From IMG/VR virus record IMGVR_UViG_2713896789_000008: a stretch of 4,493 nt of DNA; one strand, written 5' to 3'. Below are positions 2,193 to 4,493 of the stretch, piece after piece; the first letter of the stretch is position 1, and each line of letters starts with the position of its first letter. Under the pieces are notes generated by a model. The model saw only the letters and a list, made by a program, of their open reading frames with translations, ran no database searches and had not been told where the DNA came from. Made by a program: the position numbers and the translations under genes. Source of the stretch: a virus (taxonomy: Duplodnaviria; Heunggongvirae; Uroviricota; Caudoviricetes).

Positions 2193-3035
2193 ATCTCACA
2201 CCTCCGGAAATCCCCGCTGAAGCCATCATTAATGCAACATCATCTTCGCTGACATCCACCACATCCGCAGAAGGTGAAATATCGCCCCCTCCGTCCCCTC
2301 CGAACCGGACGCCTCCGGCAACTCCTGTCGCTTTCTGCATCAGCATGTCTTCCTCGTCCGGCATCTCCGTCTGCTCTTCCTCACACGCTGGAGCAAGCAG
2401 ACTGAAATCCGCCGGATGCATATCCGGATCGCCAAAAAACAGGCTGAGTACGGCGTACGTCAGCCCGGAAAAATGCATATCCAGCTGGGTATCCTGAAAA
2501 TAATGCGTGCAGTAAAAACGTCGCCAGTCGGCATATTCGGTGGATGTCATCCCGGCAAGCATGGCGCGCCAGTCGGCTCTCCCCATCTCACGCGCCAGTT
2601 TCAGGACAAAGTTCAGCTCGCCTTCGAATGCTTTTTTGATGTTACCGGCTCAGTCGCTTCTGCTTTCCCGGTTGGTTCAGGATCGGCATCGTGCCGGTTA
2701 TCCAGCATACCTGAAAGATAAAGCACCCGGTTCGTTGCCTGATTCAGTGCATCAGCAGGCCATCCCAGCATCACTTCACGGCGGATCTGCTGCATCTCTG
2801 TCTCCGGAGAGGCCAGAGTGCCTTTGAGGGAATGGGAATGCCATAGCGACATCGCCACAAGCAGGGATGCCGTTTCCAGATATCGCTGGTTAATGTGCAC
2901 GGCATCATGCTCCGTTGTCTCCTGTTGTGCTGCGTCTGAAACAAACTTCATATAATCAAACCGCTGCAGCGCGGACAGCTCCGACAGCGTGACGGACACA
3001 CCGTTATATTCAAATTGTTCTGTTTTCAGGAACAT
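2173..3035 (-). CDS. GT: Tail assembly chaperone G-T fusion made by programmed -1 ribosomal frameshift: G frame 3035 to 2631, then -1 frame 2631 to 2173 (stop TGA 2175-2173)
   Basis: The -1 frame is closed by TGA at 2652-2650 and opens at 2649. From the slip site it reads KKAFEGELNFVLKLAREMGRADWRAMLAGMTSTEYADWRRFY..., matching lambda gpT as recalled. The ATG at 2586 reported in the ORF track has no usable SD (GTGAG abuts the ATG), consistent with T being made only as a fusion. Confidence 0.8.
2199..2205 (-). promoter_or_regulatory. Shine-Dalgarno for H (GGAGGTG), 7 nt upstream of the H ATG and embedded in the 3' end of the T reading frame
   Basis: Minus-strand sequence TTTCCGGAGGTGTGAGAT-ATG read directly; GGAGGTG is complementary to the 16S anti-SD. 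Confidence 0.7.
2613..3035 (-). CDS. G: Tail assembly chaperone (lambda gpG-like), 140 aa
   Basis: ORF MFLKTEQFEYNGVSVTLSELSALQRF... matches the lambda gpG N-terminus as recalled. Sits between V and the tape measure gene, the conserved chaperone position. Preceded by GGAGG. Confidence 0.9.
   Translation of the reverse strand: MFLKTEQFEYNGVSVTLSELSALQRFDYMKFVSDAAQQETTEHDAVHINQRYLETASLLVAMSLWHSHSLKGTLASPETEMQQIRREVMLGWPADALNQATNRVLYLSGMLDNRHDADPEPTGKAEATEPVTSKKHSKAS
2631..2637 (-). promoter_or_regulatory. Programmed -1 frameshift slippery heptamer A AAA AAG (G frame codons TCA AAA AAG)
   Basis: Plus strand 2631-2637 is cttttttt read as c then six t, so the minus strand is AAAAAAG. In the G frame the codons are AAA(2636-2634) AAG(2633-2631) preceded by A at 2637, the canonical X XXY YYZ register. 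It lies 5 codons before the G stop and inside the only window (2649-2616) where both G and T frames are open. Confidence 0.75.
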
Positions 3036-3051: not shown

Positions 3052-3801
3052 TCAGCCCGCAGCGCCATCCGTGACGGTGATCTCCGCCACCGCCGCAAAC
3101 TCACCATTGCCGGTGACAACAGGGATCTGTGCTTTACCTGCCGCAACACCTTTCACCGTGATCGTGTTCCCTTTCACGGTAATGGTGGCGAAATTCTGAT
3201 TTGCCGACGTTGCGCGGAATGTTTTATCCGTTGCGCCTTCCGGCTGAACGGCCACAGTCAGGGTGGTGCTCTGACCTTTTGCCACATTCCCCGTTAGTGG
3301 CGTCACGGTAATACCGGTGACCGGTGTGATTTCTCCCCGATCCTCCGCCAGCGAAGGACGACCGATATTGGTGATTTTTACCGTACGGGTAATCACTTCT
3401 TTGGCGGTCACCGCTTTACCAATGGCGCTCACCCAGCCACGGAACACATCCACCGTACCGTTCGGGAAGCGGATTTTGTAGGCCCGGGTCTCACTGCTGT
3501 CAAACCAGGCAATCAAATCACGCTGCCCTTTCTCGCCGGGCTTCCAGGCCAGCGTAAAACTGGTGTCACCGGCAGATTTCTGCCCCTGCCCGGTGGATAC
3601 CCAGTCGGCATCCTCATCATCCAGATAGTTATCGTCGTAGGATTCCGCCGTCATCTCGCCGGGGGTCAGATCCTTTATTTTTGCCAGACGCGTCCACTCA
3701 TCATCTGACAGCGGGTTTGCATAAGCATCGCCCTTACCGGTGTAAACCCAGAGCGTGGTGCCGGAACCTTTTACCGGCGCCAGGGGATTTGGTGTTGCCA
3801 T
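3052..3801 (-). CDS. V: Major tail tube protein (lambda gpV-like), 249 aa, with C-terminal Ig-like (Big_2-type) domain
   Basis: [39 protein letters not shown]...[36 protein letters not shown]... matches lambda gpV as recalled. The C-terminal ~90 aa ([29 protein letters not shown]...[14 protein letters not shown]) has the Big_2 pattern. Confidence 0.93.
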
Positions 3802-3805
3802 ATCA

Positions 3806-3810
3806 TCCTC
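3806..3810 (-). promoter_or_regulatory. Shine-Dalgarno-like GAGGA for V, overlapping the U stop codon
   Basis: Minus strand TGAGGATGAT-ATG; the U stop TGA (3811-3809) is part of the SD-like element. The spacer is short (4 nt), so this is weaker evidence. Confidence 0.45.
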
Positions 3811-4204
3811 ACATCTCGTATGTAATGGAATAAGTCAGATCTGCAGAGCTCCACAATGCCATATCGTCATCACGACGATACTCATAGCCCTGCGTAACCA
3901 TCGTGGTAATCATGCCTGCCAGTGCAGGGATCGCCGCCATCGCCGGGTAAATCCGGCTTTCCATCCACGAATCAAGCTCTGAATCCGGTACCTGTGCCGG
4001 TAAAAACACCTCAATATGCAGTGTGGCCCGCCAGGTATCTGCATCCAGCTCTTCACCGGTATACTCTGCATCCGTCAGATAAACCGCGATCGCGGGAAAA
4101 TCCTCTTCGTCAAAAACAACGGGGCGACCATCAAACAGCGTCGCCCCGTGTTCATGCTGCTCGAGTGCATCCAGCACTGCAGCACGGATATCAGTATGTT
4201 TCAT
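3809..4204 (-). CDS. U: Tail terminator / tail tube terminator protein (lambda gpU-like), 131 aa
   Basis: [57 protein letters not shown]...[10 protein letters not shown] matches lambda gpU along its length as recalled. Its start overlaps the Z stop (ATGA). Confidence 0.93.
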
Positions 4205-4493
4205 CGTTTTATCGCAATCCTCAGTTGTTGTTTCAGCGCATATGCCAGTTCTTTGGGCAGGCGTTCACGACGGATACGGTCAACGTTTTCATCAAACGCC
4301 TGTTTCAGTGGGGCCGCCATCGGGATTTTCACCACCTGAATGGGAAGGCGATTACGCTTTTTCCTGCCCTTGTCGTCATTGCCCTTCTCATATCTGGCCT
4401 GGGGAAGACGTTGCATAACATGCCAGCGCCCATTATTTAATCGCTGGATAAATGCCCGCTGATAACGATGCTGACCGGCTTTGAGTATGCTGT
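4201..4493 (-). CDS. Z: Tail completion protein (lambda gpZ-like), C-terminal part only; 5' end lies beyond the window end
   Basis: The minus-strand frame is open from the window edge: ...SILKAGQHRYQRAFIQRLNNGRWHVMQRLPQ...[46 protein letters not shown], matching the lambda gpZ C-terminus as recalled. The ORF-track entry 4201..4416 is just the Met-initiated tail of this frame. Confidence 0.85.
   Translation of the reverse strand, partial: SILKAGQHRYQRAFIQRLNNGRWHVMQRLPQARYEKGNDDKGRKKRNRLPIQVVKIPMAAPLKQAFDENVDRIRRERLPKELAYALKQQLRIAIKR

Follow-up and report, generated by a model that had tools for sequence, protein, structure and literature searches.

The tail genes G and T of this phage are very probably expressed through a programmed −1 ribosomal frameshift at the heptamer A AAA AAG, which would make the fusion product GT alongside G, as in lambda. 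The analysed window is a 4,493-nt stretch of phage DNA, and all of its features discussed here lie on the minus strand. An earlier note on this DNA had proposed that the phage keeps the conserved G/GT recoding strategy with a heptamer other than lambda's; this proposal is supported by the gene order, the reading frames, the codon register, the position of the site relative to that of lambda, and its conservation among relatives. Every coordinate and frame in that note is confirmed and its interpretation is sound; the site is an ordinary member of a known recoding family. We infer slippage at the heptamer, its efficiency, and its role in assembly.

The minus strand of the window is a lambda-type tail block with the gene order Z-U-V-G-T-H, and every product of the block scores above the curated cut-off of its lambda counterpart's Pfam family. 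Z (Minor_tail_Z) is represented by its C-terminal part, which runs off the window end at 4493 and has its stop at 4201–4203; it is followed by U (3809–4204; Phage_tail_U) and by the major tail protein V (3052–3801; PF16461 Phage_TTP_12 plus Big_2). The Big_2 match is a C-terminal Ig-like domain of V, covering residues 160–239. G (2613–3035) encodes a tail assembly chaperone whose 140-aa zero-frame product ends at the TGA at 2615–2613. This product matches PF06894 (Phage_TAC_2) with an E value of 7.6e-35 and shares 43% amino acid identity with lambda G, and its flanking by V upstream and H downstream is the position expected of a lambda-type G chaperone. The T frame, open from 2649 to a stop at 2173–2175, matches PF06223 (Phage_tail_T) and is 72% identical to lambda T. 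The window also contains the first 730 codons of H, the tape measure gene, which starts at the ATG at 2192–2190 with a GGAGG ahead of it and matches both PF06791 (TMP_2) and PF09718 (Tape_meas_lam_C).

Translation of the frames confirms that T opens at 2649, directly after a TGA at 2652–2650, and that G and T overlap by 34 nt of G sense codons, which together with the G stop occupy 2613–2649. The same TGA is replaced by AGA in five relatives, where the overlap is 61 nt. A register-aware scan of the overlap finds a single X_XXY_YYZ heptamer, the A AAA AAG at 2637–2631 (read in G as TC[A AAA AAG] CAT), just as the earlier note had stated. The heptamer spans G codons 133–135 and ends with two codons read by tRNA-Lys, AAA for the P site and AAG for the A site. 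Translating a −1 shift at this point reproduces the previously proposed junction ...VTSKK|AFEGELNF..., and the predicted GT joins G codons 1–135 to 152 T-frame codons (AFEGELNF...VPASG; 2173–2631, stop at 2175–2173), giving 287 aa. By a rough estimate, the chance of an in-register X_XXY_YYZ within the ∼11 overlap codons is p ∼0.04. AAAAAAG and GGGAAAG each occur once in the 4,493 nt, against chance expectations of 0.54 and 0.77, respectively. Because these counts are near chance, the argument is carried by register, homology of position with lambda, and conservation.

Positional homology with lambda is direct. Where lambda reads CCT GTT TCT GCG GGA AAG TGT TCG ACG GTG AGC TGA, the window reads CCG GTA ACA TCA AAA AAG CAT TCG AAG GCG AGC TGA, so that AAAAAAG stands where lambda has G GGA AAG, and in each case 15 nt separate the end of the heptamer from the G stop. 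Conservation of the T-frame peptide begins at the first codon 3′ of the heptamer (AFEGELNFVLKLAREMGR... versus VFDGELSFALKLAREMGR...). The two phages thus have in common the gene order, the protein families, the placement of the site, and the A-site AAG, as well as a T sequence that is 85–93% identical at the nucleotide level from the heptamer onward. They differ in the body of G, which is 43% identical in protein, and in the start of the heptamer (GGG in lambda, AAA in the window), which makes the P-site codon Gly GGA in lambda and Lys AAA here. The description of this site as a different heptamer therefore needs to be narrowed: the P-site triplet does differ, but the A-site A_AAG, likened to that of dnaX, is common to lambda.

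The pattern of nucleotide identity across G locates this difference. Compared with lambda and PhiR12_4, the first 75 nt of G (3035–2961) are ∼90% identical, the G body (2960–2634) 30–50%, and the stretch from 2633 on, through T, 85–100%; blastn alignments likewise begin at ∼2634. This profile marks mosaic joints at 2961 and 2634, with the right-hand joint of a divergent G cassette falling inside the slippery heptamer itself. The AAA/GGG difference belongs to the cassette, and the AAG onward to the shared T module.

A third heptamer, G GAA AAG, occupies the homologous position in N15, HK225, mEp237, phi80, mEp043, and Eeyore, in a Superficieibacter prophage (L100) and a Pluralibacter MAG (L101), and in Klebsiella phage Kp4865-4, Salmonella Fels-1, mEp460, and Providencia phage PSTCR8lys. 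Among our loci it lies at 917–923 in L108, 885–891 in L110, 695–701 in L195 and L198, and 683–689 in L196 and L197. The GenBank records of N15 and phi80 label this 7-mer as the slippery sequence, and that of phi80 has a joined gpG-T CDS. N15 gp14/gp15 and phi80 G/G-T share with the window homologous G and T proteins, the heptamer position, and A_AAG in the A site. Their G_GAA_AAG is not a strict X_XXY_YYZ sequence, since GAA re-pairs on GGA, whereas the window heptamer is fully canonical. In Fels-1, mEp460, PSTCR8lys, Kp4865-4, and L101, the G stop follows 0–3 nt after the heptamer, versus 15 nt. Lambda's GGGAAAG, which the earlier note had taken as its reference, is therefore homologous to the window site but is not the norm of the family, in which G_GAA_AAG appears to have the broadest distribution. 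Set side by side, the heptamer classes show the true constraint: the family constant is an A-site A_AAG whose place is fixed, and the three bases upstream vary among GGG, GGA, and AAA. Judging from its host range, which is the widest, G_GAA_AAG is the likeliest ancestral form; from it, the lambda form is one substitution away and the window form two.

To place the window among its relatives we counted the 7-mer at this site in ∼270 loci drawn from viral contigs, phage records, and genomes. GGGAAAG occurs 93 times, AAAAAAG 88 times, and GGAAAAG 87 times, alongside two one-off variants; many loci are redundant and some contigs were counted twice, so that these figures mirror sampling and not natural frequencies. 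AAAAAAG is intact in 87 of 87 A-type junctions, which represent 10 of 10 distinct sequence contexts, and the positions flanking it vary. Among individual loci, L068 is probably a decayed prophage copy: a ∼31-nt deletion (∼1868–1967) takes out its heptamer together with the stop of G (...GGTAAC|TTGTCCTGA), and its G frame thereby reaches 207 codons. L209, a metagenomic viral contig of the N15 type, reads GGCAAAG at the site (495–501). This G_GCA_AAG keeps A_AAG, P-site re-pairing on it would be poor, and it may be either a real variant or a sequencing error. Junctions identical to that of lambda were also seen on short, low-coverage contigs of unrelated assemblies (L083–L096), including Chromatiales, Neobacillus, Oceanobacillus, Kitasatospora, Shewanella, and Leeuwenhoekiella. 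These are most simply explained as lambda DNA contamination. A scan of genome contigs with the G alignment returned mostly such lambda DNA, and little diversity was gained from it.

In the proposed mechanism, ribosomes translating G would reach TCA AAA AAG with tRNA-Lys on the P-site AAA and on the A-site AAG. A small fraction would slip back by one base, re-pair on AAA AAA, and continue with GCA TTC GAA... in the T frame, bypassing the G stop 15 nt downstream. The expected outcome is the 287-aa GT together with a large excess of the 140-aa G. If assembly proceeds as in lambda, the tape measure protein H would be bound by G as well as by the G moiety of GT, and the T moiety of GT would bring in the tail tube protein V.

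Reporter measurements indicate what the change of heptamer should mean for this process. In E. coli reporters, Sharma et al. (2014) determined the slippage on every X_XXZ_ZZN heptamer (PMC4066793). Frameshifting on A_AAA_AAG was 0.29% with no stimulator, 4.3% with the IS911 stimulator, and 39% with the IS3 stimulator; the corresponding values for G_GGA_AAG were 0.28%, 3.8%, and 43% (PMC4066793 Table S3). These near-equal rates suggest that the heptamer swap should leave the G:GT ratio roughly unchanged, and AAAAAAG is probably functionally equivalent to the lambda heptamer. In lambda, GT is ∼4% of G (∼30:1), and a balanced G:GT ratio of about this value is required (PMC3296357, PMC5009743). 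The thiolation state of tRNA-Lys alters the lambda ratio (PMC3296357). Since both slipping tRNAs here would be tRNA-Lys, the AAAAAAG clade could exceed lambda in sensitivity to tRNA-Lys thiolation. The A AAA AAG site at G-T is an expected variant of a thoroughly studied event, using a canonical heptamer of known and equivalent efficiency, and the prophage family that carries it has been sequenced very often.

The same fusion could in principle arise during transcription, if RNA polymerase were to add an extra A on the six-A run. The homopolymer is present in the AAAAAAG variant and absent from lambda, the resulting A7 would encode exactly the same fusion as the ribosomal slip, and rare exact GT fusions occur in databases. 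For two relatives, the predicted GT fusions have exact counterparts in NCBI-derived data (P0002, 252 aa; P0003, 287 aa), which are unnamed and encoded on one or two contigs. These proteins are in line with the ribosomal frameshift as well: they may be slippage annotations or, equally, products of genes in which a one-A insertion or a homopolymer sequencing error has made an A7 run, since the protein would be no different. However, the cited cases of productive bacterial transcriptional slippage involve longer runs, with nine A in Thermus dnaX and An with n > 7 (PMC3711429), and the GGGAAAG and GGAAAAG heptamers at the same site have only three or four A. That sister heptamers with so few A occupy the same site argues for one ribosomal mechanism centred on A_AAG, and we consider polymerase slippage improbable as the source of GT.

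Alternatively, T could be an independent gene, translated without any frameshift from the internal ATG at 2586–2584. PGAP, the Sakai record, and phage 1720a-02 all annotate a separate T CDS from this codon. Yet it is probably not a real start. No Shine-Dalgarno sequence precedes it, whereas G and H each have a GGAGG, and the 14 T-frame codons 5′ of it show cross-clade conservation (E5, L6, F8, L12, A13, R14, and E15 are invariant). Moreover, the N15, phi80, and Klebsiella types have Phe in place of its Met and hence lack such a start. Levin et al. reportedly found in 1993 that only gpGT is made in lambda. On these grounds we regard independent initiation of T as very unlikely, and return to frameshifting at A AAA AAG.

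There is next to no chance that the GGGAAAG at 2669–2663 is the functional shift site or a second one: it is identical in letters to the lambda heptamer, but the G frame reads it as ACC GGG AAA GCA (T G K A) and not as X_XXY_YYZ, so that the slipped tRNAs would have to pair with CGG GAA; the −1 frame at this point lies between the TGA at 2679–2677 and the TGA at 2652–2650 (TNRESRSD), and a shift would add just a few codons; the motif is changed to GGGAAAA or GGTAAAG in 3 of the 10 A-type contexts; and ∼0.8 copies are expected in the window by chance. We therefore rejected it as a chance decoy on grounds of register, closed frame, and lack of conservation. The earlier warning that searching for GGGAAAG alone would misplace the site is borne out, as such a search would strike this decoy 32 nt upstream of the invariant AAAAAAG.

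The ∼10-fold gap between the rate on the bare heptamer (0.28%) and the ∼4% seen in lambda suggests some stimulation by the sequence context. No upstream Shine-Dalgarno-like stimulator is present: the 20 nt 5′ of the heptamer (GCGACTGAGCCGGTAACATC) contain no GGAG, GAGG, or AGGA. On the 3′ side, single-sequence folds and an RNAalifold consensus point to a candidate stimulatory structure, a nested stem-loop of ∼69 nt at 2554–2622. Its outer stem pairs GGCGAGC (2622–2616) with GCUUGCC (2560–2554) and encloses a GC-rich hairpin (2597–2562) in which UGGCGCG pairs with CGCGCCA. The spacer from the heptamer to the outer stem is 8 nt, or 7 nt if the extended model's first pair is formed. The same nested fold is predicted in the 90 nt 3′ of the heptamer in the window, lambda, PhiR12_4, N15, phi80, and Kp4865-4; in loci L001 and L108 it lies at 1125–1193 and 932–1000, respectively. 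Fold z-scores for single sequences range from −2.0 to −4.5 in five lineages.

Over 50 distinct sequences, 95.5% of the alignment cells are paired in the consensus, compared with 21–41% when the pairing partners are slid. There is one clean compensatory pair (16–84), which is G-C in 18 and A-U in 32 of the 50 sequences and in which the 3′ change is a synonymous GCC → GCT. Most other pairs are invariant, and coding constraint confounds their reading, as the region encodes the conserved LKLARE(M/F)GRPDWRAMLAGM. The innermost pair of the predicted hairpin (54–63) is broken in 24 of the 50 sequences. A synonymous-site comparison, which is a weak test, gave codon identities of 0.68–0.70 in the structure region versus 0.56–0.65 downstream. 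The nested fold is not kept in the more distant homologues Fels-1, mEp460, and PSTCR8lys, and an Rfam search around the shift site gave no match. In the study of Sharma et al., a hairpin was predicted for only 51% of the lambda gpG cluster, which was not significant (PMC4066793 Table S8). It is conceivable, though in our estimation doubtful, that lambda, N15, phi80, and the Stx-phage clade have a conserved 3′ stimulator in common, which would explain the gap in rate and leave the P-site triplet free to drift. If this model were true, A_AAG and the 3′ structure would set the G:GT ratio while the P-site triplet drifts among GGG, GGA, and AAA.

Outside the lambda G family, close parallels to the window site are known in E. 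coli. The dnaX gene uses an identical A_AAA_AAG and, as expected here too, relies on the one tRNA-Lys of E. coli, whose pairing with AAA is better than that with AAG (PMC5009743). In dnaX, a Shine-Dalgarno-like stimulator upstream and a close downstream hairpin accompany the heptamer, ∼50% of ribosomes shift, and the shifted product is the shorter one (PMC3711429). The window, in contrast, is without a Shine-Dalgarno-like element and would give a longer product, and by analogy with lambda a low rate is expected. A_AAA_AAG is also marked as a ‘true’ shift site in the ECs1801 tail-chaperone cluster (A_AAA_AAG_25; Sharma et al. 2014, PMC4066793), which likewise concerns an E. coli prophage tail chaperone with a longer −1 product. 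That cluster belongs to a different chaperone family, in which the zero-frame product has 124 aa, the motif is at codon 124, and the fusion has 226 aa, compared with 140 aa, codons 133–135, and 287 aa in the window. In addition, A_AAA_AAG has been proposed as the shift site in Paenibacillus phage chaperones (PMC6003738).

The AAAAAAG variant is common in E. coli prophages. At ≥80% query coverage, the G/T type of the window was counted in 642–644 (so at least 642) of the 5,426 complete genomes of E. coli, is present in prophage Sp15 of O157:H7 Sakai, in EDL933, and in O111, O26, O103, and O121 strains, and also occurs in Stx1a- and Stx2a-converting phages. None of the inspected E. coli and phage records of this G/T type joins G to T; the two are listed separately. 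The main value of the site is for annotation, as these records give T as a separate gene from the internal ATG and the GT fusion is missing from them.

The 3′ end of T varies within the family. In the window, the C-terminal part of T (within 2173–2400) repeats a motif, LMQKATGVAGGVRFGGDG and then LMMASAGISGGVRYVPASG, and T of N15 and phi80 ends after the first copy. Close relatives of the window (L004, L019, and L200, with Sakai Sp15 included) have a shorter and different T end, with a T frame of 123 codons against 158, and a gap before H.
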